A stretch of DNA of 64,000 nucleotides from assembly GCF_024223415.1 (NCBI RefSeq), contig NZ_CP100500.1; one strand, 5' to 3'. Position numbers and translations under genes: made by a program. Positions 4,789 through 60,504 of this stretch are shown in pieces. The stretch is from Escherichia coli. GTDB lineage: Bacteria > Pseudomonadota > Gammaproteobacteria > Enterobacterales > Enterobacteriaceae. Each line of letters opens with the position of its first letter. Positions within the stretch are counted from its first letter, which is position 1. Below the pieces are notes generated by a model, which saw only the letters and a program-made list of their open reading frames with translations, was not told the origin of the DNA and did not search any database.

Positions 4789-4839
4789 TTTGTCTGGAGC
4801 CGCCGTACGGGCGGCTCCCCATAAATAAGGAGCAGGCTG

Positions 4840-6815: not shown

Positions 6816-7430
6816 TCAGCCAGCAAGCGCCAGTGGCGCTTCCGGCCAGCTGATTTCAGGTGCCTTGCTGATATCCAGTGCGTTCAGATCGTCGATATAA
6901 TCCAGCACGGCATTCAGTTTTGCCGTTTCTTCTGGTGTCAGACTGCGACCTGCCCGCAACTTAAGGTTGATGAGGTCGATGGACTTCATCGCCTGATCCA
7001 CCCGTTCCTGGCGTTGCTGTCTGGCAACCTCCAGCTCTTCGGCTTGCTGCCGTTCTGTATCGGTTACCCACGCCTCACCGTTCCAGGTATCCCATGGTGT
7101 GGCAGGCTGTTTTGTCGTTGTCCCTTCCGGGTAGTCACCTGGTTGGGTAATCTGGACCGGATTACCGTTCTCTGTGCTGTATACCGTCTCTCCACGATGA
7201 TCGGGGACATACTCCCACCCGTCCAGCGTGGACGTCCGGCAAATCACGTAACCCGGCATTGCCTCTGGCGGGGCATCGGCGCATGAATGTGCCGGGGTAC
7301 CCACCCCCAGGGCCAGATACTCCACAGAGGATGAGGTGTATTCCCGGGTTTCCTCATCATAGTGATATACAGTGATATCGCCTGCGAAAGTGGCGATACC
7401 GTTTTCATCCAGAACTGCAGTGTTACTCAT
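6816..7430 (-). CDS. tail fibre assembly protein (Mu U-like)
   Basis: 204-aa tail fibre assembly protein sequence; start ATG overlaps the tail-fibre stop (TAATG). Confidence 0.8.
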   Translation of the reverse strand: MSNTAVLDENGIATFAGDITVYHYDEETREYTSSSVEYLALGVGTPAHSCADAPPEAMPGYVICRTSTLDGWEYVPDHRGETVYSTENGNPVQITQPGDYPEGTTTKQPATPWDTWNGEAWVTDTERQQAEELEVARQQRQERVDQAMKSIDLINLKLRAGRSLTPEETAKLNAVLDYIDDLNALDISKAPEISWPEAPLALAG

Positions 7431-37545: not shown

Positions 37546-37555
37546 GGAGGGAAAC

Positions 37556-43687: not shown

Positions 43688-44012
43688 TAAGCTCTCTGGC
43701 GGCAACCAGCAGAAAGTTATCCTCGCGCGCTGCATGGCGCTCAATCCACGGGTGTTGATTGTCGATGAGCCGACGCGTGGCATCGACGTTGGAACCAAAT
43801 CGGAAGTGCACCAGGTGTTGTTTGATATGGCGAAAAAGGGCGTGGCGGTGATCGTGATCTCCTCCGATCTGCTTGAAGTGATGGCGGTGTCTGACCGGAT
43901 CATCACCCTTAGTGAAGGCCGGTTAACTGGCGAGATCCACGGTGACGACGCTAACGAAGAACGGCTGATGACGATGATGGCTATCAACCACAACGCCCTG
44001 AACGCGGCATAA
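43682..44012 (+). pseudogene. sugar ABC transporter ATP-binding protein, 3' part
   Basis: Begins in frame with the second ABC signature (LSGGNQQKV) and Walker B (LIVDEPT); continues the ORF broken at 6062. Confidence 0.85.
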
Positions 44013-44023
44013 CGGAGTTTCTC

Positions 44024-45052
44024 ATGACGCAGATGATTCCTAAAACGCAGGTCCCGGTAAAACGCGTCGGACGCATCGATCCCATTGCCTTCTTCGAGCG
44101 CTTCGGGGTACTGATTTTCATGATCCTGCTGCTGATCTTCTTTCAGTCGCAGAACAGTAATTTTTTCTCTGAACGCAATATTTTCAACATCCTGACCGAA
44201 GTCTCCATCTACGGGATCATGGCCGTGGGGATGACCTTCGTCATTCTGACCGCTGGGATCGACCTCTCCGTGGGCTCTATTCTGGCAGTGTGCGCCATGA
44301 CAGCGGCGTACGTGATCAAAGGCGACAATTTCACCACAGTCGATCCGAACGCTTGGGGCGGTATGAGCTGGCTGATTGGGCTGGGGATTTGTCTGACCAT
44401 GGGTACAGCGATTGGCTTCCTGCACGGTCTGGGCGTCACTCGCCTGCGCCTACCACCGTTCATCGTCACCCTTGGCGGGATGACCATCTGGCGTGGTCTG
44501 ACGCTCGTGATTAACGACGGTGCGCCGATTGCCGGCTTCGATCAGGGTTATCGCTGGTGGGGACGAGGGGAATTGCTCGGCATCTCCATTCCGATCTGGA
44601 TCTTCGCCATCGTTGCCATTGGTGGTTATCTGGCACTGCATAAAACCCGTTGGGGGCGCTTCGTCTATGCCATCGGTGGCAACCCGGAGGCGGCACGTCT
44701 GGCTGGGGTAAACGTGAAGCGTGTGCTGGTTAGCGTCTATGTGCTGATTGGCTGTCTGGCGGGGCTGGCGGGCTTCATCCTGAGCGCTCGTCTGGGGAGC
44801 GCTGAGGCGGTTGCCGGGATCTCCTTTGAGCTGCGTGTTATTGCCTCGGTGGTTATTGGCGGCACGTCGTTGATGGGGGGATATGGGCGCATCGGCGGCA
44901 CTATCATCGGCTCCATCATCATGGGCATTCTGATTAATGGCCTGGTACTGATGAACGTCTCGGCCTACTACCAGCAAATTATCACCGGATTAATTATCGT
45001 TCTGGCGGTGGCATTCGACACCTATGCCAAGAGCCGTCGCGGCGCACTGTGA
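44024..45052 (+). CDS. sugar ABC transporter permease
   Basis: 342 aa; multiple TM helices; RbsC-type permease sequence. Confidence 0.85.
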   Translation: MTQMIPKTQVPVKRVGRIDPIAFFERFGVLIFMILLLIFFQSQNSNFFSERNIFNILTEVSIYGIMAVGMTFVILTAGIDLSVGSILAVCAMTAAYVIKGDNFTTVDPNAWGGMSWLIGLGICLTMGTAIGFLHGLGVTRLRLPPFIVTLGGMTIWRGLTLVINDGAPIAGFDQGYRWWGRGELLGISIPIWIFAIVAIGGYLALHKTRWGRFVYAIGGNPEAARLAGVNVKRVLVSVYVLIGCLAGLAGFILSARLGSAEAVAGISFELRVIASVVIGGTSLMGGYGRIGGTIIGSIIMGILINGLVLMNVSAYYQQIITGLIIVLAVAFDTYAKSRRGAL

Positions 45053-45060
45053 GGATCACG

Positions 45061-46194
45061 ATGAAAGAGGTTCGTATTGGATTGATTGGCACCGGGTATA
45101 TTGGCAAGGCGCATGCCATTGCCTATGCCCAGGCACCGACGGTGTTCAATCTGCGCGGCAAACTGGTGCGCGAGATGGTGGCTGAGGTGAACCCGGCGCT
45201 GGCGGCAGAACGCGCGCAGGCGTTTGGCTTCAATCGCTCAACCGGAGACTGGCGGGTGCTCGTGGCCGACCCGGCCATTGATGTGGTGGATATTTGCTCC
45301 CCTAACCATCTTCACAAAGAGATGGCGCTGGAGGCGATCCGCCACGGCAAGCACGTCTATTCGGAAAAGCCGCTGGCACTGAATGCCCACGACGCGCGTG
45401 AGATGGTCGACGCTGCGAAGCGGGCAGGGGTGAAAACGCTGGTGGGTTTCAATTACATGAAAAACCCGACGGCACAGTTGGCGAAAGAGATTATTGCGCG
45501 CGGCGAAATTGGTGAGGTGATCCACTTCTACGGAACCCACAACGAAGACTATATGGCCGACCCGCTTTCCCCTATTCACTGGCACTGTTTTAAAGAGACC
45601 GCCGGACTGGGGGCTCTGGGTGACTTGGCGGCACATATCGTCAATATGGCCCAGTATCTGGTGGGAGAGATTGAGCAGGTCTGTGGCGATCTGAAAATTG
45701 TGGTGCCGGCACGTCCGGCAAAGGCCGGATCGTCGGAAATGGTCACCGTGGAAAATGAAGATCAGGCCCACGCGATGGTGCGCTTTGCGGGCGGGGCGCA
45801 GGGCGTCATTGAAACTTCCCGCGTCGCCTGCGGCCGCAAGATGGGGCTGTCATATGTCATTACTGGTACCAAAGGAGCGATCAGTTTTACCCAAGAGCGG
45901 ATGGCAGAGATAAAGCTCTATCTACATGATGATCCGGTGAACCGTCAGGGGTTCCGGACACTGTTGGTCGGTCCGGCACACCCGGATTACGGCGCGTTTT
46001 GCATGGGCGCAGGTCATGGTATCGGCTTTAACGATCAAAAAACGGTGGAAGTGCGTGATCTGGTAGACGGCATTGCCACCGACGCACCGATGTGGCCGGA
46101 CTTCGAAGAGGGCTGGAAGGTCTCGCGCGTGCTGGATGCCATCGCACTCTCACACCAGCAGGGCCTCTGGCTGAACGTGAATGACATTGTCTGA
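45061..46194 (+). CDS. Gfo/Idh/MocA-family oxidoreductase (inositol dehydrogenase-like)
   Basis: Rossmann motif GLIGTGYIGKAH; GAGGA RBS before ATG 45061. Confidence 0.8.
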   Translation: MKEVRIGLIGTGYIGKAHAIAYAQAPTVFNLRGKLVREMVAEVNPALAAERAQAFGFNRSTGDWRVLVADPAIDVVDICSPNHLHKEMALEAIRHGKHVYSEKPLALNAHDAREMVDAAKRAGVKTLVGFNYMKNPTAQLAKEIIARGEIGEVIHFYGTHNEDYMADPLSPIHWHCFKETAGLGALGDLAAHIVNMAQYLVGEIEQVCGDLKIVVPARPAKAGSSEMVTVENEDQAHAMVRFAGGAQGVIETSRVACGRKMGLSYVITGTKGAISFTQERMAEIKLYLHDDPVNRQGFRTLLVGPAHPDYGAFCMGAGHGIGFNDQKTVEVRDLVDGIATDAPMWPDFEEGWKVSRVLDAIALSHQQGLWLNVNDIV

Positions 46195-46206
46195 AGAGGG
46201 TTCAAC

Positions 46207-48111
46207 GTGGAAAAGCAGTTTGATGTGATATGCATGGGCCGCGTGGCGGTAGACCTCTACAGCCAGCAAATTGGTGCCCGCCTGGAGGATGTGTCGAGCT
46301 TCGCCAAATATCTCGGCGGCTCGTCCGGCAACGTGGCGTACGGTACCGCGCGTCAGGGCTTACGCTCGTCAATGCTGGCGCGCGTTGGCGATGAACATAT
46401 GGGGCGCTTCCTGCGGGAAGAGTTAAACCAGGTGGGCTGCGATACCAGCCATCTGATCACCGATAAAGAACGCCTTACGGCGCTGGTGCTACTCGGCATT
46501 AAAGACCGGGACACCTTTCCTCTGATTTTTTATCGCGATAACTGCGCGGATATGGCGATTACTGCCAGCGATGTGGACGAAAGCTACATTGCCTCCGCAC
46601 GGTGTATTGCCATCACCGGGACTCACCTTTCTCACCCGCAGACCCGCGAGGCGGTGCTGACGGCGCTGAATTACGCCCGCCGTCACGGCGTGCGCACGGT
46701 GCTGGACATCGACTACCGTCCGGTGCTGTGGGGACTAACCTCTCTAGGAGACGGCGAAACGCGTTTTATCGTTGCCGAACAGGTTACCCGTGAACTTCAG
46801 GAGGTGCTACACCTTTTCGACGTCGTTGTCGGCACCGAAGAGGAGTTTCACATTGCGGGGGGCAGCACCGATACGTTGCAGGCGCTGGCGCAGGTGCGCC
46901 ACGTCAGCAAGGCGACACTGGTTTGCAAGCGCGGCGCGCTGGGCTGTTCGGTGTATACCGATGCCATTCCACCTCGGCTGGATGACGGTCTGACGGTGAC
47001 CGGCGTGCGTGTGGAGGTGCTTAACGTCCTTGGCGCGGGAGATGCGTTTATGTCTGGCCTGCTGCGCGGTTACCTGAACGACGAGGGCTGGGAGCAGGCG
47101 TGCCGCTACGCCAACGCCTGTGGGGCGCTGGTGGTCTCGCGCCACGGCTGTGCACCGGCGATGCCGAGCAAAATTGAGCTGGATGATTACCTCTCCCGCG
47201 CCGCGCTCGTTCCGCGCCCGGACATTGACCCGCGTCTTAACCATCTGCACCGGGTGACCACCCGCCGCCGCGAATGGCCGGAGCTGTGCGTGATGGCGTT
47301 CGATCACCGCAGTCAACTGGAAGATATGGCGCTGCAGTGCGGCGCGTCGCTTAAGCGTATTCCGGCGCTGAAACAGCTGATCCTGCAGGCCAGCCGAGAG
47401 GCGGCAAGCTCTGCCGGGCTGGAGGGGAAAGCCGGCCTGCTGTGCGATGGCACCTTTGGTCAGGATGCGCTGAACGCCATTACCGGCGAAGGGTGGTGGA
47501 TTGGTCGTCCCATTGAACTGCCAGGCTCGCGTCCGCTGGAGATGGAGCACGGTAACATTGGTACCCAGCTTATCAGTTGGCCGCAGGAGCATGTGGTGAA
47601 GTGCCTGGTCTTTTTCCATCCGGAAGATGCCCACGGCTTGCGTCTGGAGCAGGAGCAGAAAATCGCCGAGGTGTACCACGCCTGCTGTCAGTCCGGACAT
47701 GAACTGCTGCTGGAGGTGATATTACCCGCCACTATGCCGCGCAGTGACGAACTTTATCTGCGTGCCATTTCCCGCTTCTACAACCTTGGCATTTACCCCG
47801 ACTGGTGGAAACTGCCGCCGCTCTCCGCCGAAGGCTGGACGGCACTGAGCGAGATTATCGCGCGCCGGGACCCGCACTGCCGCGGCGTGGTGATCCTCGG
47901 TCTGGATGCTCCGGCGGAACAGCTGCGTGCCGACTTCAAAGCTGCCGCGGGGCAGGCGCTGGTGAAAGGCTTCGCCGTGGGGCGCACGCTGTTTGGCGAT
48001 GCCTCCCGCGCATGGCTGAAACACGATATTGACGATGCGCAGCTGGTGGCGCGCATCCGGGACAACTACCTGCAGCTTATCGCCTGGTGGCGCGAGCGCG
48101 GACACGCATAA
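46207..48111 (+). CDS. iolC: 5-dehydro-2-deoxygluconokinase (PfkB kinase with C-terminal extension)
   Basis: 634 aa; PfkB motifs (GGxxxN, VLGAGDAF); GTG start with AGAGGG RBS. Confidence 0.8.
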   Translation: MEKQFDVICMGRVAVDLYSQQIGARLEDVSSFAKYLGGSSGNVAYGTARQGLRSSMLARVGDEHMGRFLREELNQVGCDTSHLITDKERLTALVLLGIKDRDTFPLIFYRDNCADMAITASDVDESYIASARCIAITGTHLSHPQTREAVLTALNYARRHGVRTVLDIDYRPVLWGLTSLGDGETRFIVAEQVTRELQEVLHLFDVVVGTEEEFHIAGGSTDTLQALAQVRHVSKATLVCKRGALGCSVYTDAIPPRLDDGLTVTGVRVEVLNVLGAGDAFMSGLLRGYLNDEGWEQACRYANACGALVVSRHGCAPAMPSKIELDDYLSRAALVPRPDIDPRLNHLHRVTTRRREWPELCVMAFDHRSQLEDMALQCGASLKRIPALKQLILQASREAASSAGLEGKAGLLCDGTFGQDALNAITGEGWWIGRPIELPGSRPLEMEHGNIGTQLISWPQEHVVKCLVFFHPEDAHGLRLEQEQKIAEVYHACCQSGHELLLEVILPATMPRSDELYLRAISRFYNLGIYPDWWKLPPLSAEGWTALSEIIARRDPHCRGVVILGLDAPAEQLRADFKAAAGQALVKGFAVGRTLFGDASRAWLKHDIDDAQLVARIRDNYLQLIAWWRERGHA

Positions 48112-48122
48112 TGGAGACGACA

Positions 48123-49013
48123 ATGAGTGTACAACTGGGCATCAACCCGCTGACGTGGACGAACGATGATCTGCCTTCACTGGGCGCGGAGACATCTCTG
48201 GAGACCTGCCTGAGTGAAGGGAAAGAGGCCGGTTTTGCCGGCTTCGAACTGGGCAATAAATTCCCGAGAGAAGCGCGCCTGCTCGGCCCCATTTTGCAGC
48301 GCCACGACCTGCAGTTGGTCTCCGGCTGGTATTCCGGCCGCCTGTTGGAACGCAGTGTAGAGGACGAGATTGCTGCTGTGCAGTCGCATCTGACGCTGCT
48401 GCGAGAGCTGGGTGCAAAAGTACTGGTTTTTGCGGAAGTGAGTGGCTGCATTCACGGTGAGCAGCAGACGCCGGTTCACCTGCGCCCACGTTTCCCGCAG
48501 GAATGCTGGAAAGAGTATGGTGAGAAACTCACCGTGTTCGCCCGCTATACGCAGCAACAGGGGGTACAGATTGCTTACCACCATCATATGGGCACGGTGA
48601 TTGAGTCCGCTCAAGACGTGGACAACCTGATGCTCCACACGGGTGAGGAGGTTGGTTTACTGCTGGATACTGGCCACCTGACCTTTGCCGGGGCCGATCC
48701 GCTGGCGGTGGCACAGCGATGGGCATCGCGCATCAATCATGTTCACTGCAAAGATGTGCGCGCCGACGTGCTGGCGGACGTCAAAAACCGTAAAACCAGC
48801 TTCCTCGACGCGGTGCTGAGCGGCGTGTTTACCGTGCCGGGTGACGGCTGCGTGGATTATCCGCCGATTATGCAACTGCTGAAAACGCAGGATTATCACG
48901 GTTGGCTGGTGGTGGAGGCTGAACAGGACCCGGCGATCGCCCATCCGCTGACCTACGCCCGTCTGGGATATAACAATCTGAGCCGCCTGGCGCGCGACGC
49001 CGGGCTTATCTGA
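48123..49013 (+). CDS. iolE: inosose dehydratase (xylose-isomerase-like TIM barrel)
   Basis: About 296 aa; start at ATG 48123 just after the iolC stop. Confidence 0.8.
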   Translation: MSVQLGINPLTWTNDDLPSLGAETSLETCLSEGKEAGFAGFELGNKFPREARLLGPILQRHDLQLVSGWYSGRLLERSVEDEIAAVQSHLTLLRELGAKVLVFAEVSGCIHGEQQTPVHLRPRFPQECWKEYGEKLTVFARYTQQQGVQIAYHHHMGTVIESAQDVDNLMLHTGEEVGLLLDTGHLTFAGADPLAVAQRWASRINHVHCKDVRADVLADVKNRKTSFLDAVLSGVFTVPGDGCVDYPPIMQLLKTQDYHGWLVVEAEQDPAIAHPLTYARLGYNNLSRLARDAGLI

Positions 49014-49022
49014 GGAGGTGAC

Positions 49023-49844
49023 ATGTCACGTCTGTTATCACGCTGGCAACAGCCGAACGCTGAGGGGCGGACTCAGTCTGTCACGCCGGAAAGCGCCGGA
49101 TGGGGATATGTTGGCTTTGAGGCCTATGAACTTGAGGAAGGGCAGCAACTGACGCTGCCCGCTGTCAGTGAAGAGCGCTGTCTGGTGCTGGTGGCCGGGC
49201 GCGCTTTCATCAGCACTCCTTCTGCACAGTTTATTGATATCGGGGAGCGGATGAGCCCGTTCGAGCGCATCAAACCTTGGGCGGTTTACGTCACCCCGCA
49301 GGAGGCAGTGCAGGTGAAGGCGCTGACGAAACTGGAGCTGGCAGTCTGTACCGCTCCGGGAAAAGGGACATACCCGACGCGGTTGATTGCACCTCAGGAT
49401 ATCGATGGCGAAGCGCGCGGTAACGGCCACAACCAGCGTTATGTGCATAATATTTTGCCGGAAGACAAGCCCGCTGACAGCCTGCTGGTCGTCGAGGTCT
49501 GGACCAACGAAGGCTGTACCAGTTCGTACCCGAGCCATAAACACGATACGAATAACCCGCCTCAGGAGAGCTATCTGGAGGAGACCTATTACCATCGCCT
49601 CAACCCGGAACAGGGGTTCTGCATGCAGCGGGTGTATACCGATGACCGCACACTTGATGAATGTATGGCGGTCTATAACCGTGACGTGGTCATGGTGCCG
49701 AAAGGGTACCACCCGGTGGCGACGATGGCCGGGTATGACAGTTATTACCTTAACGTGATGGCCGGACCAGTACGTAAATGGATATTCACCTGGGAAAAGG
49801 AACACTCATGGATAAACACAGAGTATTCTGCCATTTCTTTATAA
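49023..49844 (+). CDS. iolB: 5-deoxy-glucuronate isomerase
   Basis: 273 aa; IolB-type sequence; last gene of the cluster. Confidence 0.8.
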   Translation: MSRLLSRWQQPNAEGRTQSVTPESAGWGYVGFEAYELEEGQQLTLPAVSEERCLVLVAGRAFISTPSAQFIDIGERMSPFERIKPWAVYVTPQEAVQVKALTKLELAVCTAPGKGTYPTRLIAPQDIDGEARGNGHNQRYVHNILPEDKPADSLLVVEVWTNEGCTSSYPSHKHDTNNPPQESYLEETYYHRLNPEQGFCMQRVYTDDRTLDECMAVYNRDVVMVPKGYHPVATMAGYDSYYLNVMAGPVRKWIFTWEKEHSWINTEYSAISL

Positions 49845-49886: not shown

Positions 49887-50588
49887 TATAATATGACTCG
49901 ACAATGTTATTTCAAAGTCTGAGTGATGATTTTTCTCTCAGGCAGTATGTTCCTCAATAAGGATGAGAATGTATTCTGTTCATTGGCATATGCATTTATA
50001 TTCTAATGAGCTGAATTTTATAAAGGTTGTGGCTATTCTGGAGTATAAATATTTTTTTTCATTAGACATGAAAGTCTATATGATGGTGTATTAATATTTT
50101 TAGCAATTATGAACGGTTTGTCATGAACCAGTGACCAATTCGTTATGGTGGTGTGCGGTTATATGGTACCTGCTTATGGTGTTATGTTTTTGTCACGTTT
50201 TTGCTGGGGGGTAACATATGTATTGTTTATTTTATATGGTTTATTAAAAAGCTATGAACTCTTTTCAGAGTAATCTCTCACAGTTTTTTTTAATGTTTTA
50301 AAGTTGGTAGTGGTTTGTTATTTTATTTAACTATGTGTTCTTGAAAAAGAACAATGTTTTAAGTGTTGGTTTTTTATCCTTATGATTTTTTAAATGAACT
50401 ATTCAACAATTTACGCTGTGCTGTCCTACAGTTAAAGAGCGTTAATGTAATATCAAATGTAATTATTACGGACAGGCTGAAATCTGGTTGTGTACATCAG
50501 TTGGTGCAAAAAGGCTTATCAAAGTACTGAAATAATAGTAAGTACAATAATAATGATGAATATTGCTACATGGAGATTGGATTTGCCC

Positions 50589-51494
50589 CTATATTTCCAG
50601 ACACCTGTTATCACTTAACCCATTACTGGCTTGCTGCCGTAGATATTCCCGTGGCGAGCGATAACCCAGTGCACTATGCGGATGCCATTCGTTATAATGC
50701 TCGAACGCCTCTGCAAGGTTCTTTGCTGCCGTTAACCCGTCTGGTTTGGGCATGACACTGATGTAGTCACGCTTTATCGTTTTCACGAAGCTCTCTGCTA
50801 TGCCGTTACTCTCCGGACTCCGCACCGCCGTGCTCTTCGGTTCAAGCCCCAACATCCGGGCAAACTGCCGTGTTTCATTAGCCCGGTAGCATGAACCATT
50901 ATCCGTCAGCCACTCTACTGGAGACGCCGGAAGCTCGTTGCCGAAGCGGCGTTCCACCGCTCCTGGCATGACGTCCTGTACTGTTTCACTGTTGAAGCCG
51001 CCCGTAGTGACCGCCCAGTGCAGTGCCTCACGGTCACAGCAGTCCAGCGCGAACGTGACTCGCAGTTTTTCTCCGTTATCACAGCGGAACTCGAACCCGT
51101 CAGAGCACCATCGCTGATTACTTTCTTTCACAGCCACTCTGCCTGTATGTGCCCGTTTCGATGGCGGTACAGCAGGTTTTCGCTCAAGCAACAGCGCATT
51201 CTGGCGCATGATCCGGTAAACACGTTTGGCATTGATCGCAGGCATACCATCAAGTTCGGCCTGTCTGCGAAGCAGCGCCCATACCCGACGATAACCATAC
51301 GTGGGCAGCTCTCCGATAACATGGTGTATACGGAGAAGCACATCCGTATCATCAGTGTGACGACTGCGGCGGCCATCCATCCAGTCATCGGTTCGTCTGA
51401 GAATGACGTGCAACTGCGCACGCGACACCCGGAGACAACGGCTGACTAAGCTTACTCCCCATCCCCGGGCAATAAGGGCGCGTGCGCTATCCAC
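50589..51494 (-). CDS. insD: IS2 transposase OrfB (DDE domain)
   Basis: 301-aa IS3-family integrase-core sequence. Confidence 0.85.
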
Positions 51495-51817
51495 TTTTTT
51501 GCCCGTCCATATTCAACGGCTTCTTTGAGGAGTTCATTTTCCATCGTTTTCTTGCCGAGCAGGCGCTGGAGTTCTTTAATCTGCTTCATGGCGGCAGCAA
51601 GTTCAGAGGCAGGAACAACCTGTTCTCCGGCGGCGACAGCAGTAAGACTTCCTTCCTGGTATTGCTTACGCCAGAGAAATAACTGGCTGGCTGCTACACC
51701 ATGTTGCCGGGCAACGAGGGAGACCGTCATCCCCGGTTCAAAGCTCTGCTGAACAATTGCGATCTTTTCCTGTGTGGTAAGCCGTCTGCGTTTCTCCGGT
51801 CCTAAGACATCAATCAT
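51452..51817 (-). CDS. insC: IS2 OrfA (HTH protein)
   Basis: [12 protein letters not shown]... HTH/leucine-zipper protein overlapping OrfB. Confidence 0.85.
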
Positions 51818-52030
51818 CTGCTCTCCAATGACTAGTCTAAAAACTAGTATTAAGACTATCACTTAAATAAGTGATACTGGTTGTCTGGAGATTCAGGGGG
51901 CCAGTCTAGAGATATAAAGAGCGTCTAGCTCCGGATATATCTTTGACACTACGACAGTACTTGCAAAACGGGGTTGGTAATGCTGCCAACTTACTGATTT
52001 AGTGTATGATGGTGATTTTAAGGTGCTTGC

Positions 52031-52306
52031 GTGGCTTCCATTTCCATCAGATGTCCTTCCTGCTCCGCTACTGAAGGCGTGGTGCGTAACGGCAAAAGCA
52101 CTGCCGGACATCAGCGCTATCTCTGCTCTCATTGCCGTAAAACATGGCAACTACAGTTCACTTACACCGCCTCTCAGCCCGGTACGCACCAGAAAATCAT
52201 TGATATGGCCATGAATGGCGTCGGATGTCGCGCCAGTGCACGCATTATGGGCGTTGGCCTCAACACGGTTTTACGTCACTTAAAAAACTCAGGCCGCAGT
52301 CGGTAA
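52031..52306 (+). CDS. insA: IS1 InsA
   Basis: 91-aa zinc-finger protein typical of IS1. Confidence 0.85.
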
Positions 52307-52728
52307 CCTCGCGCATACAACCGGGCAGTGATGTGATTGTCTGCGCTGAAATGGACGAACAGTGGGGCTACGTCGGTGCTAAATCACGTCAGCGCTGGCT
52401 GTTTTACGCGTATGACAGGATACGGAGGACGGTTATGGCGCACGTATTCGGTGAACGCACTCTGGCCACACTGGAGCGTCTTCTGAGCCTGCTGTCGGCC
52501 TTTGACGTGGTGATATGGATGACGGATGGCTGGCCACTGTATGAATCCCGCCTGAAGGGAAAGCTGCACGTAATCAGCAAGCGATATACGCAGCGAATTG
52601 AGCGGCATAACCTGAATCTGAGGCAGCACCTGGCACGGCTGGGACGGAAGTCGCTGTCGTTCTCAAAATCGGTGGAGCTGCATGACAAAGTCATCGGGCA
52701 TTATCTGAACATAAAACACTATCAATAA
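52225..52728 (+). CDS. insB: IS1 InsB (expressed as an InsAB' frameshift fusion)
   Basis: Overlapping -1 frame ORF with IS1 transposase sequence. Confidence 0.8.
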
Positions 52729-52743
52729 GTTGGAGTCATTACC

Positions 52744-53432
52744 AGGAACGAGTACAGGAAAAATTCAGTTCTTTTTTAATTGCCTTTAAAGATGGTGTCA
52801 TCGGAGGGATACTGTCAGGTATTACCACAACGCTGTTAAATATATTCCTGACGACGGAAAGAATGATTGTCCGGCTTATCAGGGAAATGTGGAACAACCT
52901 CGTTCAGGCCTTTAAAGTCCTGGTATTTAACCCGGAGGGATTATCGCCGGGGCAGTTAGCCAAAGCGGTCACTAAACTGATAGCAGCAGGTGTGGCTGTT
53001 GCCGGTGGGGTGATGATAAATGAGGCGATGGCGCAGATCCTTATTTTTCCATTTGGTTCAGAGCTTGCTGCCTTTTGTGGTGCGCTGACGACAGGTATTC
53101 TCGGGCTGGTGATGAATTATTATCTCGAATATAGCGAGGTTATGCAGCGGGTATGGGCATTTCTGGACAAATTTAAGGACAAATTCCAGCGGTCACTGGA
53201 ATACTTTCAGGCAGTCAATGCTGAACTTGATCGCTATCTTGTGGAACTTACTGCACTGGAATTTTCTGTTGATGCTGCCGCGTTAAATCATTTTTCACTT
53301 CATCTGGATAGCGTAAACAGTGAGATAGAGCGCGGACTTCTGCTGAGAGAAGAAGTCAGCCGACGAGGGATTGCGTTGCCGTTTGAGTCAGGAAATGTGG
53401 CTTCTGTTCGTGACTGGTTAAATAAGCGATGA
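52744..53432 (+). pseudogene. 3' fragment of a gene truncated by IS1
   Basis: Reading frame is open from the IS1 boundary; no start codon or RBS until internal ATG 52863. Confidence 0.5.
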
Positions 53433-53695
53433 AATTACACCCTCCATTTCCCTGTAACCAGTGTGGGGCCTGTTGTCGTCATGTCAACAGGGCGGGTGAA
53501 ACGCAATGTCTGGATCGTGGTGACGGTATTTGCCGTCACTATCAGACTGATTCTCATTTGTGTGCAATTTATGATAAACGCCCACAGATTTGCCGGGTTG
53601 AAGACCAGTATTTACTGAATTATCAGTCTCAGTACAGCTGGCAGGAGTTTATTGCATTAAACCAGGCCGCCTGCCTTATTCTGAATAAACTGTAA
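53429..53695 (+). CDS. small Cys-rich protein (CxxCxxCC motif)
   Basis: 88 aa; CNQCGACC ... CAIY pattern typical of small metal-binding proteins. Confidence 0.5.
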   Translation: MKLHPPFPCNQCGACCRHVNRAGETQCLDRGDGICRHYQTDSHLCAIYDKRPQICRVEDQYLLNYQSQYSWQEFIALNQAACLILNKL

Positions 53696-53834
53696 TGCCA
53701 TTAATGGCGGCGTCAGGACAGAAACTGAGAGAACATAAAACAGTAAAATGTCATTCCGTTCAGCAGCCAGCGTTGCTTTCTCCGGCTGCTGTTATTGTAA
53801 GGCATTTTCGTTAAGAACGCAGAAGGAGAGGATC

Positions 53835-54032
53835 GTGAGATTGCTGTTAAAAGGGCTCGTCGGAATGGCGCTGGTCTGGCTTGTTATTGGTTTCGGGATG
53901 GAGTTATTTTTTCTCGCCGATCGGGTTCATCCGGCATTAAGAGTAATCGTTGGCCTGGGGATGTTATTCCTGATGATAATGATTGCGGGTGGTATGTGCG
54001 GTTCTCTTCTGTCACGAAAGAAAACATCATGA
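53835..54032 (+). CDS. small membrane protein
   Basis: GTG start with GGAGAGG RBS; two hydrophobic helices. Confidence 0.35.
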   Translation: MRLLLKGLVGMALVWLVIGFGMELFFLADRVHPALRVIVGLGMLFLMIMIAGGMCGSLLSRKKTS

Positions 54033-54166
54033 CGTTCCTGTTTACGCCGTTACATTTGTGGCGGCGGATGATACCTGTTTTATGATTATTCAGAAAAATG
54101 TATTTACCTGTCACGGCATGTTCAGCGAGCGGCGCCGGACAGAAATATCGCTTTTACTCAATTATT

Positions 54167-55771
54167 ATGAAAATTAATCTTCCATTCATACACTGGCCAC
54201 GGATTAGCAATGATAAGCGCCTCGTGTTATCAGTGGTTGTCTTTATCCTTTTTAATCTCCTTGTATCCTCAGGAGCGCATCTGATTTACCGGATATTATT
54301 CTTTATCCTGGCGCTTCTTATTATTAAGGCAATGAAATCGCTTACGTTGCGTTTGATTCTTGCCTTCCCGTTCACATTACTGACTGCTGCAGATATCAGT
54401 ATCAGCCTGTATTCATGGTGTACATTTGGCACAACATTTAATGATGGTTTTGCAATCAGTATCCTTCAGACAGATCCTGATGAAGTAATAAGAATGTTCA
54501 GGATGTATGTTGTTTATGTTATCGCATTTATTATCCTCTTTTTATTGTTCTTCTGTTCAGCAATAAATAAAACGTCCTCATTGCCATCGGAAAAGGTCAC
54601 GGTAATTACATTTTTATTGTTAATTACAGTAACGTTATATTCTTCCTTCCAGTTTGCGTTGAAGAAACAGTATCAAATAAATGAAGTTGATCCTTACATA
54701 GTCGCTTCCCGGTTTGCCACATATACCTCTTTCTTTAATCTGAACTATTTTGCACTGGCCGCAAAGGAGCATCAGAGATTAATGACGATTGCTGATACCA
54801 TACCTCACTACGATCTGGTGATTACGGATAACAACACTGACGTATTTGTTCTGGTGATTGGTGAATCTGCAAGGACTGATAACATGTCCATTTACGGGTA
54901 TTCGCGCCCTACCACACCAGAGCTTCAGAAACAGAAATCACGACTGAAACTGTTCACTCAGGCAATCAGCGGGGCACCTTATACCGCTCTTGCGGTACCG
55001 CTGGCATTATCTGCTGATACCGTGCTGCATCATGATGTTCGCCGTTACCCCGATAATATTATCAACATGGCGAATCAGGCGGGGTTCGATACCTGGTGGC
55101 TCAGTGCGCAGTCCGCTTTCCGACAGAACGGAACGGCTGTGGCCAGTATCGCCATGCGGGCCAGAAACAGAATTTATGTCAGAGGCTATGATGAATTACT
55201 GCTCCCACACCTGGCTGAAGCACTGAACAGTAATCCGGGGAGCAGGAAACTGATTGTTCTGCATCTGACGGGCAGCCATGAGCCAGTCTGCAGTAACTGG
55301 CCCAGAGATAAAGCCGTGTTTAAACCGCTGGATACAGAAGAAGTCTGCTACGATAATTCCATTCATTATACCGACAGTTTGTTGGGACAGGTTTTCACCA
55401 TGCTGGAAACGCGTCAGGCATCCGTCATGTATTTTTCAGATCATGGCCTGGAGTATGACCCGACAAAAGAGCATGCCTATTTTCATGGCGGAATAAAACC
55501 CAGCCAGCAGGCTTATCATGTTCCGATGTTTATCTGGTACAGCCCGGCACTGGGAGAGCATGTCGATCGCCAGACGGTGAACAGCGTTTTTTCCACTGCG
55601 TATAATGATTATCTGATTAATGCATGGATGGGCGTAACCAGACCGGCTCAACCGAAAACGCCGGAGGAGGTGATTACCCGCTGGCAGGGGAAATCCGTGG
55701 TTTTTGATGCCAGTCATAACGTGTTTGATTACAAAGTATTACGAAAGAACTTTAATGAACTCCAGGAATAA
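54167..55771 (+). CDS. phosphoethanolamine transferase family protein (sulfatase-like)
   Basis: N-terminal multi-TM region then sulfatase-type domain (VIGESARTD ... LHLTGSHEP ... SDHG); start at ATG 54167 is approximate. Confidence 0.7.
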   Translation: MKINLPFIHWPRISNDKRLVLSVVVFILFNLLVSSGAHLIYRILFFILALLIIKAMKSLTLRLILAFPFTLLTAADISISLYSWCTFGTTFNDGFAISILQTDPDEVIRMFRMYVVYVIAFIILFLLFFCSAINKTSSLPSEKVTVITFLLLITVTLYSSFQFALKKQYQINEVDPYIVASRFATYTSFFNLNYFALAAKEHQRLMTIADTIPHYDLVITDNNTDVFVLVIGESARTDNMSIYGYSRPTTPELQKQKSRLKLFTQAISGAPYTALAVPLALSADTVLHHDVRRYPDNIINMANQAGFDTWWLSAQSAFRQNGTAVASIAMRARNRIYVRGYDELLLPHLAEALNSNPGSRKLIVLHLTGSHEPVCSNWPRDKAVFKPLDTEEVCYDNSIHYTDSLLGQVFTMLETRQASVMYFSDHGLEYDPTKEHAYFHGGIKPSQQAYHVPMFIWYSPALGEHVDRQTVNSVFSTAYNDYLINAWMGVTRPAQPKTPEEVITRWQGKSVVFDASHNVFDYKVLRKNFNELQE

Positions 55772-55867
55772 TTCATTAAAGTAATTTACTTCGCTATCCT
55801 TTTTCCAGTTACTCACAAAGAAAAATATTCAGAAAATAATTCCCGGGTTGGCAGCCCGGGATGATTA

Positions 55868-56143
55868 CTATTTTAATGGATTGTTAATCTTTGCATATTC
55901 AAACGGGCTGATACATTGTTCTCTGTTCGCATCCAGAAAATCTGCCCACCACTGTAGCATCAGTCGACGTTCTTCCAGATGTTCTGCTTTATGGATATAC
56001 GCAGCACGTACACCATTACGCTCCTGATGACTCATCTGACGTTCCACTGCATCGCGGGACCACAAACCTGATTTAATCAATGCACTGCACGCCATCGCCC
56101 GGAATCCATGGCCACAGACCTCTTCCTGCGTATTGTATCTCAT
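55868..56143 (-). pseudogene. C-terminal remnant of a tyrosine integrase
   Basis: ..GHGFRAMA..RQMSH..R..YIH..LQWWADFLD.. parallels the C-terminus of the intact integrase at 59068-60252; no N-terminal domain. Confidence 0.6.
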
Positions 56144-56451
56144 CAGTCTCAGTGCGTTATTGACCGTATTTTAACTAACGAGCTTGTGCCTGATTACCAA
56201 TAATTATCAGTTCATATTTTATGCAGACTTGTGCCAATCACTTGTTTTGAAAGAGGTTCTAAGATTCGTTGCATGCATTCTTGACCCTCAATGGTAATGT
56301 CTCGTTAAATATGATAGATATTAGCCGTAATTTTATTTTAGCGGGGTCGGTAAATTGGGGTGGAATTAGTCGATAAAAATATTAGAATACACTATTTTGC
56401 AGGCAAAATAGTGATATGATACATTTTTGTGTAAATTTATAAGGAGATAAG

Positions 56452-57375
56452 ATGGATAAGTTAAGGGCGCTAATTAGCCGAGCATCTAAGCTTTATAACA
56501 GGAATATAGATCATCTTCCAATAACTTTAGAACTAATCGAGTATTCAATGGGGCTTTTGGATAAGAAAGCAAGTTACGGTTATTTTGGTTCATTTGAAGG
56601 GAAAAAAGAAATAGACTACTATGCATTCTTTAGTAATAACGAGATCTCAAGACCTATTAGAGATGATTTATATATCAGAGATGTAAGTATCTATAAGAAA
56701 TTAAGTGACAACTTGTTTGTCGATTTAAAACAGTTCCGTTCTGTCTGGAGTTCAGATAAATCAATAGTAGCAAATAAAATTATATATACATCAGTTATGT
56801 CAGTTGCCTGCGCTTTTGATTTGTGGAAGAAAGGTAGTAGAAAAACACCTGGTACATTTTTTGAGATTTATATTGCTGCTCTATTGAAAGTAATGCTTCC
56901 GAATGAAGTTTTTTCAAAGCATATCCCATTGATTGATTCGATGAAAAATGATGAGGGGCTTAGAGATTCGGCGAATATTTCTACTGATCTGGTAATAAAA
57001 AGCCGCGCAAATGTTAATCGCGGAGTAGTTATCCCATTAAAAATAACAACAAGAGAGCGTATTGTTCAGCCATTTGCTCATCAACGAATTCTGGATTCAT
57101 ATTTTGGGAATGGTTTTTTTCATTCTTTCTTGGCATGCATTAGTGAAACTCAACAAGATAAGTTTAATCGAGAAGTAAACCATATATGTGTTCCTGGAAC
57201 AATACGATTGTATCAGAAATATTTATCAAGTATTGCGGGAATATATTATTGTGATATTCCAGAGAGATATTTACAAGCTGATTTGACCAGTATAATACCG
57301 GTCAAATCAATGGGGGAGTTTTTGTCAGATATAAATGATTTTTTTATGGAAATAGCTGAATCTGATCCTCATTAG
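56452..57375 (+). CDS. hypothetical protein, candidate restriction endonuclease
   Basis: 307-aa ORF in AT-rich DNA, convergent with and overlapping the cytosine-5 methyltransferase gene by 32 bp; no recognisable family by eye. Confidence 0.6.
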   Translation: MDKLRALISRASKLYNRNIDHLPITLELIEYSMGLLDKKASYGYFGSFEGKKEIDYYAFFSNNEISRPIRDDLYIRDVSIYKKLSDNLFVDLKQFRSVWSSDKSIVANKIIYTSVMSVACAFDLWKKGSRKTPGTFFEIYIAALLKVMLPNEVFSKHIPLIDSMKNDEGLRDSANISTDLVIKSRANVNRGVVIPLKITTRERIVQPFAHQRILDSYFGNGFFHSFLACISETQQDKFNREVNHICVPGTIRLYQKYLSSIAGIYYCDIPERYLQADLTSIIPVKSMGEFLSDINDFFMEIAESDPH

Positions 57376-58468
57376 TCTTCTCAACAGGGTTTTGATAGTT
57401 GCTTTTTTCATAATTTTGTTTATTAAGACATTTAATAATTGCTGTTCCTGCCGCTTTAGCTACTGGCGGCGGAACAGCATTCCCAATTTGTAATCTTATG
57501 GCATCTCTTTTACCATAAAACCGATAGTCAACAGGGAATCCTTGTAACATTGCACCCTCTCTAAGAGTTATAGCTCTGTTCTGAGAAGGATGTCCATATC
57601 TGCCTCTGGTGAAGCTATCAAATCCCGCAGTAATTGTTGGACATTGTTTATCCCATTCAAGCCTCCCGTACACGTCAGGCCATCCGCCGGAGTTAGTATC
57701 AACATTTTGATGGCATTTTAGTCTCAAATCATGCGGAATATCCTTCCACCCCCCTCCGGGGGGAACATAAGAGAACCTTTCTTCATTAAGTTTAGTTATT
57801 TTACACTTAATATGATTAGGTATCTCGCAATGTTCACTATAATCGTCAGGAGGGGGAGGAAGATTACCAATAACATCTTTGATAGTAAGTTCGTTATCAA
57901 CTTTCTCCAGTTTAGGATAATCGCAGTTCTCAGATTTATCTATTCCGATCATAATAAAGCGCCCTCTCTTCTGGGCAACGCCAAAATCTGAAGAGCAAAT
58001 GAAAAAAGTGAATATGTTATATTTAAATAATTTCTCTTTTACTTCTCTTATTAAATCCTGTCCTCTCTTTTGTCCAAAAATTTCGACATTTTCAAACAGA
58101 AAAGCCCGGGGGTTTAGCTCATTTACCAGTCTGGAATATTCCAGTACTAACTTATTTCTTTCATCATTTAACAGATGAGCTCCTTTTCTTTGTTTGGAAA
58201 AGCCCTGACATGGCGGCCCGCCGCTAAAAAGATCCAGTCGGGAGTTTATTCCCGCTTTGTCTAAAAGAAACTTACCGCTAATAACCGAAGCATCTAATTG
58301 AAGACAATGCCCTCCAAGATTATTATTATATGTTTTCACGGCATCCTCATTGATATCAAATGCTAATTTGATATCGAACCCCGCTTGCTTAAGCCCAAGG
58401 GACATTCCTCCAGCACCACAGAAGCCTTCAATGCATGTAAGTTTTTGAACAGTATCAGCTTTACTCAT
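57344..58468 (-). CDS. DNA cytosine-5 methyltransferase
   Basis: Motif I FCGAGG, motif IV PPCQGFS, motif VI ENV, motif VIII QKRGR, motif X GNAV. Confidence 0.85.
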   Translation of the reverse strand: MSKADTVQKLTCIEGFCGAGGMSLGLKQAGFDIKLAFDINEDAVKTYNNNLGGHCLQLDASVISGKFLLDKAGINSRLDLFSGGPPCQGFSKQRKGAHLLNDERNKLVLEYSRLVNELNPRAFLFENVEIFGQKRGQDLIREVKEKLFKYNIFTFFICSSDFGVAQKRGRFIMIGIDKSENCDYPKLEKVDNELTIKDVIGNLPPPPDDYSEHCEIPNHIKCKITKLNEERFSYVPPGGGWKDIPHDLRLKCHQNVDTNSGGWPDVYGRLEWDKQCPTITAGFDSFTRGRYGHPSQNRAITLREGAMLQGFPVDYRFYGKRDAIRLQIGNAVPPPVAKAAGTAIIKCLNKQNYEKSNYQNPVEKTNEDQIQLFP

Positions 58469-59067
58469 GTTAACTCACTTAATGCTCATTAATCTTCCTA
58501 GTATAACGATATTTATCAAACAAAACCATAGCTACATTTTAAACTAAAAGTAGCTAATAAGAACGATTGAATGACTTAATTTATATAAATAAGATATCCA
58601 GTATTGATACATCATGTGTTCAGCATGATGTATGTGCAACTGAAGCATCATTCGAAGTTTTCCTCAATATTCATATTCTGCATATATGCTATTCCAGATA
58701 ACTGGCCTGCCATTCGATATTATGACGAAGCCTGATTATGCTAATGCATCATACGCTATAACCCGGTATTTATGGCCACAGATATTTTGGATTGTGTCAT
58801 CTCCTGTAACCTTAAGGGGGGGATTGACGGTGTTTTATCTGCTTGCCCTGTGAGTACATGCATTTCCATAACATTCAGGCTATTTTCACCTACCGGAATC
58901 TGAAGTTCAGTCAGTATGCCTGCAACCTGTTTATGGTGTTGAACAGGGTTCAATAGCAGAATTTGGGCTTCTGGAGTGAGTTCAGAATGTGTTGGTAAAT
59001 CAAGCCACAATAAAACCGTTCAGTGGTCTGACTGGATGGCTCGTTATTATATCCACAGAGCTCTCAT

Positions 59068-60252
59068 TTATAGTGCGCACCTGGAGAGCGAATCAATGTA
59101 ATCTGCGTACCATTGCATCATTTCACGACGACCATCCAGGTACTGCGCATGGTTATAGGTACCCCTGATGGAATTTTTATCCACATGAGCTAACTGCATT
59201 TCAATCCAGGCAGAATTAAAGCCCTGTTCGTGCAGAATGGTACTCATGGTGTGACGAAAACCATGACCGGTTGCCCTGCCATCGTAACCGATACGTTTGA
59301 GCACCATATTGATGCTGGCTTCGCTCATTGGCTTGTTGATATCACAACGTCCCGGAAAAACCAGCCGGTATTGCCCGGAGAAAGTTTTGAGCTGCAGCAG
59401 AATGTCAGTGGCCTGTCGTGACAGTGGTACGACATGTTTACGTCGCATTTTCATGCGGCTTTCAGGGATTGTCCACAGGGCATTATCAAAATCAATTTCT
59501 GACCATTCAGCGAACCGTAGCTCAATGGTTCTGAGACCTGTCAGAAGCAGAAGATTTGTCGCCATGCGGGTAACAGGACTGCCATGATATTCAGCGAGCT
59601 TCCGGATAAAAGCTGGGAGCTCATCTGCTCTCAGGTGAGGGAAATGCGCCGCTTTTGGTGCCGCCAGTGTACTGGTCAGTTCAGATGCCGGATTGACAGT
59701 GGCTCGTCCGGTGGCGATGGCATAACGAAAAATCTGATTACAGTATTGGCGTACCTTACGAAGTTTCTCCAGCGAGCCACGTTTTTCTATGCGGCGCAGA
59801 ATTTCCAGCATTTCCAGCGGGAGGATATCAGTAACGCTTCGTTTGCCCAGATACGGAAAAATATCTTTATCCAGAGCCTCCAGTACGCTTCTGGCGTAAC
59901 TTTCAGACCATGACAAAGATTTATGCTGGTGCCATTCCGTAGCGAGGGCATGGAACGTATTGGTGGCAGAGATTTTCTGAGTGAGTTTTTCCTTTCGCTT
60001 CTTTTCGCCCGGGTCACCACCTTCGGAGATGATTTTTCGGGCATCGTCGCGTTTGATTCTGGCCTCAGCAAGGGAGACGTCGGGATAGACGCCGAGGGCC
60101 AGTTTTTTCTCTTTTCCTGCTATCCGGTATTTAAGCCGCCAGTAGCGGGCTCCCGTGGTTTTTACCAGCAGATATAAACCACGTTCGTCAGAGAGTTTAT
60201 AGTCTTTTTCTTTAGGTCTGGCTGTTTCGACCTGTCTGGCTGTAAGTGCCAT
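59068..60252 (-). CDS. P4-type tyrosine integrase
   Basis: MALTARQVETARPKEKDYKLSDERGLYL... N-terminus and HxxR...Y catalytic region; AGGAG RBS; adjacent to the tRNA-Phe 3' end. Confidence 0.85.
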   Translation of the reverse strand: MALTARQVETARPKEKDYKLSDERGLYLLVKTTGARYWRLKYRIAGKEKKLALGVYPDVSLAEARIKRDDARKIISEGGDPGEKKRKEKLTQKISATNTFHALATEWHQHKSLSWSESYARSVLEALDKDIFPYLGKRSVTDILPLEMLEILRRIEKRGSLEKLRKVRQYCNQIFRYAIATGRATVNPASELTSTLAAPKAAHFPHLRADELPAFIRKLAEYHGSPVTRMATNLLLLTGLRTIELRFAEWSEIDFDNALWTIPESRMKMRRKHVVPLSRQATDILLQLKTFSGQYRLVFPGRCDINKPMSEASINMVLKRIGYDGRATGHGFRHTMSTILHEQGFNSAWIEMQLAHVDKNSIRGTYNHAQYLDGRREMMQWYADYIDSLSRCAL

Positions 60253-60320
60253 ATGGGGGCTCCTGAAACTGACTGAACACAATGAGCCCCCACCGGTGCC
60301 CCCAATGAACGCTTGATTGA

Positions 60321-60428: not shown

Positions 60429-60504
60429 TGGTGCCCGGACTCGGAATCGAACCAAGGACACGGGGATTTTCAATCCCCTGCTCTACCGACTGAGCTATCC
60501 GGGC
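60429..60504 (-). tRNA. pheV: tRNA-Phe (anticodon GAA)
   Basis: 76-nt sequence identical to E. coli tRNA-Phe with CCA end; named pheV from yqgA/speC synteny. Confidence 0.95.

Follow-up and report, generated by a model that had tools for sequence, protein, structure and literature searches.

Is the phosphoethanolamine (PEtN) transferase gene in a pheV island of Escherichia coli a colistin-resistance gene of the mcr/EptA type, and do the small open reading frames (ORFs) beside it encode its partners? The gene lies in the window, the 64,000-nucleotide stretch of contig NZ_CP100500.1 (assembly GCF_024223415.1) that was analysed here. The sequence-only reading had placed it between an IS1-truncated gene and an integrase remnant, and this location is exact: IS1 ends at 52743, and what is left of the 3' end of a P4-type integrase gene begins at 55868. 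The features of the region are as follows.

50578-51908: IS2, just upstream of IS1 and 97% identical to K-12 IS2K.
51976-52743, plus strand: IS1, 768 bp, with terminal repeats GGTAATGCTGCCAACTTACTGAT ... and ... TTGGAGTCATTACC and the InsA and InsB ORFs.
52744-53432, plus strand: the final 228 codons of a 523-aa gene, a 3' fragment recognised by homology to the intact L001 gene at 7120-8691.
53429-53695, plus strand: YkgJ-family CxxCxxCC protein, 88 aa (Pfam PF03692, 25.8 bits against a cut-off of 23).
53835-54032, plus strand: small hydrophobic membrane protein, 65 aa; its GTG start codon follows a strong ribosome-binding site, AAGGAGAGG.
54167-55771, plus strand: YhbX-subfamily PEtN transferase, 534 aa from the probable start M24; databases give 54098-55771, 557 aa.
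55841-55861, no strand assigned: GC-rich, terminator-like hairpin between the convergent transferase gene and integrase remnant.
55868-56143, minus strand: P4-type tyrosine integrase remnant; of 420 aa the C-terminal 91 are left, and they match residues 330-420 of the L001 integrase at 95% identity.
56452-57375, plus strand: type II restriction enzyme (PADLOC REase_II, E 6.5e-132).
57344-58468, minus strand: C5-cytosine methyltransferase (PADLOC MTase_II, E 3.1e-99; Pfam DNA_methylase, E 1.2e-56).
59068-60282, minus strand: second P4-type integrase, intact, 43% identical to the truncated one.
60429-60504, minus strand: tRNA-Phe (pheV), the attachment end of the island.

Past pheV the sequence continues into core genes, yqgA and speC, that are 98% identical to their E. 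coli counterparts, and an Rfam search returned nothing but tRNA. A variable slot separates the transferase gene from the integrase, and here the type II restriction-modification pair (56452-58468, GC 0.32-0.42) fills it; megablast of the pair against 5426 complete E. coli genomes gave no match. Homology of the integrase remnant to the intact gene stops at 56119, and its match to Phage_integrase/PRK09692 is weak. The hairpin has a 7-bp stem, 6 of whose pairs are GC, and on the minus strand a T-rich tail comes after it; it is a consensus match only.

The transferase is a member of the sulfatase-like PEtN transferases with a multi-TM N-terminus and a catalytic domain, as had been proposed. Pfam Sulfatase matches residues 250-497 (E 1.1e-49). 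The AlphaFold model (pLDDT 93, pTM 0.91) has an N-terminal multi-helix membrane domain, with long helices at 15-33, 36-55, 59-87, 104-133 and 142-171 followed by bridging helices; a hydropathy scan agrees that a membrane domain precedes the catalytic domain. PDB sequence matches are EcEptC, NmEptA, CjEptC and MCR-1. In Foldseek searches the full-length model aligns with NmEptA (5FGN, TM 0.64) and MCR-1 (9NWW, TM 0.65). The catalytic domain has the sulfatase fold: it aligns with those of EcEptC, NmEptA and MCR-1 at TMt 0.71-0.78, and its best match is EcEptC (6A82, E 6e-20).

The active site is complete. In NmEptA, E240, T280, D452 and H453 are the zinc and nucleophile residues, and H383 and H465 form a second site (PMC10525099). 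Residue-by-residue alignment pairs E256, T296, H394, D448 and H449 of the transferase with NmEptA E240, T280, H383, D452 and H453, and H463 aligns with H465; the Thr nucleophile, the zinc ligands and the second-site His are thus all present. The donor-binding residues T110 and E114 correspond to T125 and E129. All catalytic residues (E256, T296, H389, H394, D448, H449 and H463) match both NmEptA and MCR-1, and E256, T296, H394, D448 and H449 are invariant or almost so in 50 YhbX-like proteins. The predicted fold, the catalytic residues and the dN/dS values given below make it likely that the transferase is an active enzyme; that it would transfer PEtN is a prediction from homology.

The overall architecture and active site shared with NmEptA and MCR-1 are what would speak for a lipid A PEtN transferase that raises polymyxin and colistin resistance in the manner of mcr or EptA. 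All family-level scores argue the other way. The NCBIfam models for MCR-1 to MCR-13 score 37 to 71 bits against cut-offs of at least 1075 (range 1075-1250), the EptA model 99 against 660 and the H. pylori-type EptA model 137 against 561. EptB (114 against 493) and CptA (142 against 404) also fall short. Identity to the K-12 enzymes is 25% for EptB, 24% for EptC, 28% for OpgE and 27% for EptA, in the last case over the catalytic domain only. The Pfam membrane domain EptA_B_N is not detected in the transferase, and BcsG shows no similarity (E 4.7). In a neighbour-joining tree the protein falls within a clade of YhbX, Leminorella and Hafnia proteins, apart from OpgE, EptC, EptB and EptA. A search of plasmids found a close form on a single record, a 62-kb circular 'non-mobilizable plasmid' that carries the 65-aa ORF and the transferase gene at 93% identity, and not on the many mcr plasmids. 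Four further matches in the plasmid collection, at about 65%, are records of 0.35-4.9 Mb with a YhbX-type copy and are not plasmids. The earlier statement that nothing pointed to an mcr/EptA type is borne out. Judged by its sequence, the transferase gene is not an mcr/EptA colistin-resistance gene, and it is highly improbable that it acts like one.

Comparison with the EptA, EptB, EptC, OpgE and MCR families had been proposed as the check, and high identity to a characterised housekeeping transferase as the refutation; none of these families reaches such identity, and the closest relative is YhbX. K-12 YhbX (b3173) is 65% identical over residues 42-557 (516 residues). YhbX is also the nearest representative among clusters at 50% identity, the second nearest standing at 43%. 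YhbX is a housekeeping protein in the sense of core: yhbX is present in 5159 of the 5426 complete genomes (95%), between argG and leuU. The transferase gene is not in that position. Its site is a pheV island, and in 95% of genomes core yhbX is found at a separate locus; the transferase is therefore a horizontally carried paralogue of core yhbX, in the YhbX subfamily, and not an orthologue. An identical protein is already in RefSeq (WP_112038141.1).

The relatives say little of function. In the parts of the YhbX literature consulted, including PMC4013655, no established function is reported, and the subfamily is absent from a review of PEtN transferases (PMC10525099), which a full-text search for 'yhbX' did not return. 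Literature searches on yhbX, yjgX, PDC-M09/PDC-M40 and pheV islands found no functional data. The neighbourhoods of more distant YhbX-like proteins gave no clue to an acceptor: the P0151 and P0152 contigs are too short, and the P0154 neighbourhood holds unrelated metabolic and transport genes. The Leminorella and Hafnia copies are not close to tRNA genes. No phage homologue of the transferase exceeds 32% identity. The K-12 leuX-island pseudogene yjgX was considered as the identity of the gene and rejected, at 31% identity against 65% for YhbX.

The transferase gene is found in 453 of the 5426 complete E. coli genomes (about 8%), always on the chromosome. It occurs at pheV or selC and always near an integrase; it is an ordinary, already-annotated and common component of the islands at these two sites. 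In 352 complete genomes a full block of WYL, PDC and YkgJ genes lies directly upstream in the same orientation, and about 100 genomes (453 against 352) have the transferase gene without the WYL block. The block without the transferase occurs in one genome, H82. At selC the 65-aa ORF and the transferase gene stand beside leoCBA, and the YkgJ and WYL/PDC genes are absent. In ETEC4077 the transferase gene is a frameshifted pseudogene adjoining an Ail/Lom gene, and in some strains IS1 is inserted in the 65-aa ORF. As some strains carry such pseudogene or IS1-hit versions, the transferase is dispensable.

In the window the reading frame is intact over the annotated 54098-55771. The start codon is probably ATG 54167 (M24), which gives a product of 534 aa; this start is favoured because dN exceeds dS in codons 1-23 between alleles and because the YhbX alignment opens just past M24. 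Codons 24-557 have a dN/dS of 0.11-0.25 between alleles, with dS up to 0.17, and are thus under purifying selection. These values bear on the idea that the gene is a silent or decaying passenger without current function, kept only through its closeness to the integrase. Its accessory distribution and the disrupted versions fit that idea, as do its GC content of 40% in surroundings rich in IS elements and the lack of a predicted promoter. The 65%-identical core paralogue in most complete genomes fits as well, although the window is silent on this strain's copy. Against it, no frame break is seen in this allele or in the others that were compared, selection has been purifying, and every catalytic residue is kept whereas the non-coding codons 1-23 have drifted. 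A passenger of this kind is improbable.

IS1 has cut a separate operon, and the small ORFs beside the transferase gene are mostly what is left of it. As IS1 ends at 52743, position 52744 is the first base past it; homology to L001 starts at window position 52742, which corresponds to L001 8001. The first usable start in the fragment that follows is an internal ATG at 52863, which gives 189 aa with two hydrophobic segments in a hydropathy scan. This 189-aa 'membrane ORF' is a fragment of the 523-aa gene and was rejected as a gene of its own. The intact 523-aa homologue matches PADLOC PDC-M40B over residues 11-425 (E 5.6e-43) and no Pfam family. The fragment in the window does not give this full-length match because IS1 removed the rest, leaving residues 296-523. 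The CxxCxxCC protein noted earlier upstream of the transferase is real, with cysteines arranged C9-x2-C12-x2-C15-C16. It scores under the YcgN equivalog cut-offs, and both RefSeq and the protein cluster call it a YkgJ family protein. Its ORF shares 4 bp (ATGA) with the end of the preceding PDC-M40B-like gene. With it ends the separate operon, which runs WYL regulator, PDC-M09A-like, PDC-M40B-like, YkgJ and is a candidate anti-phage system; no test of anti-phage activity was found in the literature on PDC-M09/PDC-M40. YkgJ as an accessory partner of the transferase, for example in redox or metal supply, was rejected on distribution: it is missing from the selC and ETEC4077 versions, which have kept the transferase gene.

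The order of genes invites another explanation, in which the transferase is a working part of one anti-phage operon (WYL, PDC-M09A-like, PDC-M40B-like, YkgJ, 65-aa ORF, transferase) that is dead in the window after IS1 insertion. The genes are contiguous and co-oriented, the full block is kept in the 352 genomes, and the upstream proteins match PADLOC candidate-defence models. A scan of the plus strand from 53695 to 54167 found no sigma-70-like promoter, so the stretch directly before the transferase gene lacks a promoter-like site; promoter and terminator scans gave no signal above shuffled expectation. Distribution speaks against such an operon. The transferase gene and the 65-aa ORF occur without those genes beside leoCBA at selC and beside Ail/Lom in ETEC4077, H82 has the block without the transferase, and YkgJ is missing wherever the WYL/PDC genes are missing. 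Neither the transferase nor YkgJ has a PADLOC match, and recombination breakpoints fall precisely at both sides of the 65-aa ORF. Membership of the transferase in this operon is accordingly quite unlikely.

The 65-aa ORF is the small gene that stays with the transferase. The earlier mention of small membrane ORFs stands in part: the 65-aa ORF from GTG 53835 is the small membrane gene, a 94-aa ORF from 53748 having been rejected in its favour, and the 189-aa ORF drops out as a gene fragment. Next to the transferase gene at selC the 65-aa ORF has 81.5% aa identity and a dN/dS of 0.31. Each of the 59 homologues for which a source is named comes from E. coli, and none has a Pfam domain. No homologue was found upstream of core yhbX. 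The 65-aa ORF is genetically linked to the transferase gene. The two form a conserved block of a small integrase-proximal islet at pheV or selC, whose order is tRNA, int, variable slot, transferase gene, 65-aa gene, variable slot and tia/Ail-like outer membrane protein gene. In the window tia and most of the WYL/PDC/YkgJ operon have been deleted.

It is probable that the gene encodes an intact inner-membrane PEtN transferase of the YhbX subfamily, a horizontally carried yhbX paralogue, and that the YkgJ and 189-aa ORFs come from a separate operon. If the enzyme works as NmEptA and MCR-1 do, its N-terminal helical domain would be the inner-membrane anchor. Zinc may be bound in its periplasmic domain through E256, T296, D448 and H449, with a second site at H394 and H463. 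T296 would attack phosphatidylethanolamine to form a PEtN-Thr intermediate, and the PEtN would then be handed to a periplasm-exposed envelope acceptor; there is no pointer to lipid A. The YkgJ and 189-aa ORFs would be the tail of the operon beheaded by IS1 and not partners of the transferase, which would function independently of these neighbours. Three observations were counted against this explanation. One is the missing sigma-70-like promoter, and another the pseudogene or IS1-hit versions in some strains; the third is the co-oriented arrangement directly downstream of WYL/PDC/YkgJ in the 352 genomes, which makes co-transcription, and some functional tie, possible.

A bolder proposal is that the transferase and its 65-aa partner are a self-contained envelope-remodelling module which changes a surface structure that phages or cationic peptides exploit, and that integrase-proximal islets retain the module for this reason. 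This could be a 'conversion' function analogous to prophage-encoded O-antigen modification. The proposal is rather unlikely. If true, it would account for the module's place as conserved anchor, with defence cargo in the slots on both sides (the type II restriction-modification pair here; Eleos/leoCBA or the WYL-PDC operon on the other side), and it would give a first handle on the acceptor of the YhbX subfamily.

In practice the result matters little: the gene can be struck off lists of suspected colistin-resistance determinants, and the idea of a Cys-rich partner can be dropped. However modest, the locus has two uses. Together with its dedicated small membrane protein, the island copy offers a handy natural gain-of-function allele for finding the acceptor of the YhbX subfamily, and the transferase gene marks a conserved anchor flanking variable, defence-rich slots beside P4-type integrases.

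Among known enzymes, NmEptA (LptA) and MCR-1 share with the transferase the full-length fold, the zinc ligands, the Thr nucleophile and, in the periplasmic helix, the Thr and Glu that bind the donor. They differ in sequence (19-21% identity) and belong to a separate clade, and the MCR and EptA scores lie far under the cut-offs; lipid A specificity is therefore not supported. EptC/CptA, EptB and OpgE belong to the same superfamily, and the EptC catalytic domain is the top structural match, but their identity is in the 24-28% range found for the four K-12 enzymes, and the CptA and EptB cut-offs are missed. YhbX, a putative PEtN transferase/hydrolase, has the same domain layout and catalytic residues and is the nearest representative in the same clade; it is core, whereas the transferase is accessory, with P4-type integrases next to it at pheV or selC. 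The yjgX gene of K-12 (KpLE2 at leuX) is likewise a PEtN-transferase-family gene convergent with a P4-type integrase beside a tRNA gene. It resembles the transferase over the catalytic domain alone, at 31% identity, and thus represents a different lineage. The literature puts it together with YhbX-like genes among the recurrent components of islands (PMC6174562). A yjgX deletion has been described as a false positive in a defensin screen. A parallel in layout is offered by the Tia pathogenicity island of ETEC (tia-leoCBA at selC): strain 28Eco12 shows the same integrase-proximal arrangement, with the 65-aa ORF and with the transferase at 96% aa identity. The difference lies in the slot upstream of the transferase gene, which holds leoCBA (PADLOC LeoA, LeoB and LeoC) in the Tia island and the WYL/PDC/YkgJ operon in the pheV islands.

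The window is a piece of E. coli chromosome. A sequence-only reading had placed a transferase of the phosphoethanolamine (PEtN) family at 52744-55771, between an IS1-truncated gene and an integrase remnant and with a small Cys-rich ORF upstream. All of these elements are present:

50578-51908: IS2
51976-52743: complete IS1 (768 bp) with terminal repeats, directly upstream of the 52744-55771 region
53429-53695: Cys-rich ORF (YkgJ), motif C9-x2-C12-x2-C15-C16
54098-55771 (+): transferase ORF, open for 557 codons; Pfam Sulfatase at residues 250-497 (E 1.1e-49)
55868-56143 (-): P4-type integrase remnant (last 91 residues of 420 aa), downstream of the transferase
within 56120-59080: low-GC (0.32-0.42) type II restriction-modification (R-M) pair
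60429-60504: tRNA-Phe gene (pheV)

Strain WS4437A-1 has an intact integrase gene, to which the remnant is 95% identical, and YkgJ scores above the Pfam CxxCxxCC cut-off (25.8 vs 23 bits). Beyond pheV lie yqgA and speC, 98% identical to E. coli. An Rfam scan found tRNA and nothing else.

The transferase is likely to be an active enzyme of YhbX type, carried as an accessory paralogue. As predicted from sequence comparison, T296 and Zn would take PEtN from phosphatidylethanolamine; the group would then be handed to a periplasmic acceptor. An AlphaFold model that used 50 homologues (pLDDT 93, pTM 0.91) places five long helices at the N terminus, ahead of the catalytic domain. It superposes full-length on Neisseria meningitidis EptA (5FGN, TM 0.64) and MCR-1 (9NWW, TM 0.65), and its best structural match is the periplasmic domain of E. 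coli EptC (E 6e-20). The residues of N. meningitidis EptA that bind Zn or form the PEtN-Thr intermediate are E240, T280, D452, H453, H383 and H465 (PMC10525099). These align with E256, T296, D448, H449, H394 and H463 of the transferase, residues that vary little or not at all among the YhbX-like proteins compared. Pseudogene alleles do exist, as expected of a decaying passenger, but the catalytic residues are intact and codons 24-557 are under purifying selection (dN/dS 0.11-0.25 between alleles of different strains), which makes decay improbable.

The first 23 codons of the annotated 557-aa ORF (54098-54166) evolve as non-coding DNA would. Because dN exceeds dS in them between alleles (0.20 vs 0.10; 0.14 vs 0.07) and the alignment with YhbX begins only after them, the true start is most likely ATG 54167, giving 534 aa. 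Some database entries use this start; the 557-aa RefSeq annotations probably carry 23 residues too many. A search upstream of the transferase showed no promoter-like site.

In undamaged islands, reading outward from pheV, a 420-aa integrase comes first, then the transferase, a 65-aa ORF, YkgJ, genes for proteins of 523 aa and 359 aa, an HTH regulator with WYL and WCX domains, and a gene for a tia-like outer membrane protein. Products of the 523-aa and 359-aa genes match two PADLOC candidate-defence models, PDC-M40B (E 5.6e-43) and PDC-M09A (E 3.9e-23) respectively. YkgJ shares a 4-bp overlap with the 523-aa gene and is a member of this candidate defence operon. In the window, IS1 has taken away all that lay distal to codon 295 in the 523-aa gene; the 189-aa membrane ORF is a gene fragment, and YkgJ is the orphaned last gene of the operon.

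The 65-aa ORF has a GTG start at 53835 behind a strong ribosome-binding site. The Tia island at selC also keeps it beside the transferase (81.5% identity, dN/dS 0.31); this island runs tia, leoC, leoB, leoA, 65-aa ORF, transferase, TPR gene, integrase, tRNA-Sec and lacks YkgJ and the WYL/PDC genes. Of 5426 complete genomes, 453 carry the transferase and 352 the whole WYL-to-transferase block; one has the WYL block but lacks the transferase. Functional coupling of the transferase to the operon, with which it is co-oriented, is unlikely, as this modular distribution counts against it. The transferase and 65-aa ORF are not part of the upstream operon; they form a conserved anchor with a variable slot on each side. 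Depending on strain, the slot between transferase and integrase is empty or is occupied by a TPR gene or by an MFS transporter with IS3.

In the window this slot holds the R-M pair and a second integrase, 43% identical to the truncated one. The older integrase gene has lost its 5' three-quarters to the pair. The restriction enzyme (PADLOC REase_II, E 6.5e-132) has 307 aa and the C5-cytosine (Dcm-type) methyltransferase 374 aa; their genes are convergent and overlap. The pair has no megablast match in the 5426 complete E. coli genomes; only the adjoining integrase is common in E. coli.

The selC version (L018, 1320-1502) and the pheV version (L030, 8767-8952) each carry another integrase remnant immediately beyond the tia-like gene, which suggests that the tia-to-integrase segment is a small islet of ~10 kb with more islands stacked behind. 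The sole close plasmid-collection record is a 62,375-bp circular 'non-mobilizable plasmid' of E. coli RHB40-C01 (CP057032.1), with the 65-aa ORF, transferase (93% aa) and MFS gene; it could represent an island that has excised, or be an artefact of assembly. No close phage homologues of the transferase were found, and neighbourhoods of distant YhbX-like genes were uninformative.

Elsewhere in the window, a high-GC (0.58-0.66) myo-inositol utilisation cluster (1-6180 and ~44000-49844) is split in two by phage genes. It encodes iolD, iolG, an ABC transporter, a bifunctional iolC/iolJ-type kinase-aldolase, iolE and iolB, each scoring above its NCBIfam equivalog cut-off. The 3' end of the ABC ATPase gene, near 6180, may be missing, since the 446-aa ORF covers only positions ~1-400 of ~500 in family models. 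Between the halves, ~6800-38700 looks like a transposable (Mu-like) phage inserted in the cluster, with Mu-type portal, large terminase, tail sheath, tape measure and tail fibre genes (-) and a DDE (rve) transposase and AAA+ ATPase at 35776-38722 (+). Between iolB and IS2, 49963-50570 is very AT-rich (GC 0.30) with short ORFs only.

The transferase gene is already known and annotated; the exact protein is WP_112038141.1, 'phosphoethanolamine transferase [Escherichia coli]', in a 90%-identity cluster of 2955 members. A 2024 pheV-island study does not mention it. Known and annotated without characterisation, it is ordinary for a genome scan. Identity with the K-12 island pseudogene yjgX was rejected (31% only). 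PEtN-transferase paralogues of K-12 repeatedly adjoin tRNA genes (yhbX/leuU, eptB/proK, yjgX/intB and leuX), and opgE adjoins ompX, a gene for an Ail/Lom-family outer membrane protein, mirroring the pairing of tia (also Ail/Lom-family) with the transferase on islands; these proximities could be old island insertions or coincidence.

A lipid A or colistin function is very improbable, as the transferase fails every EptA and MCR membership test. It falls under every curated cut-off (E. coli EptA 99 vs 660, EptB 114 vs 493, CptA 142 vs 404) and scores 37-71 against all MCR families, where cut-offs are 1075 or more. Identity to K-12 OpgE, EptA, EptB and EptC is 28%, 27%, 25% and 24%, and no similarity to BcsG was found. 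K-12 YhbX is 65% identical over residues 42-557 and is the nearest 50%-identity cluster representative; the runner-up reaches just 43%. In a neighbour-joining tree the transferase is sister to E. coli YhbX, in a clade with Leminorella (59%) and Hafnia (48%) proteins and outside which OpgE, EptC, EptB and EptA fall. The transferase is an accessory paralogue; core yhbX occupies a locus of its own, present in 95% of complete genomes.
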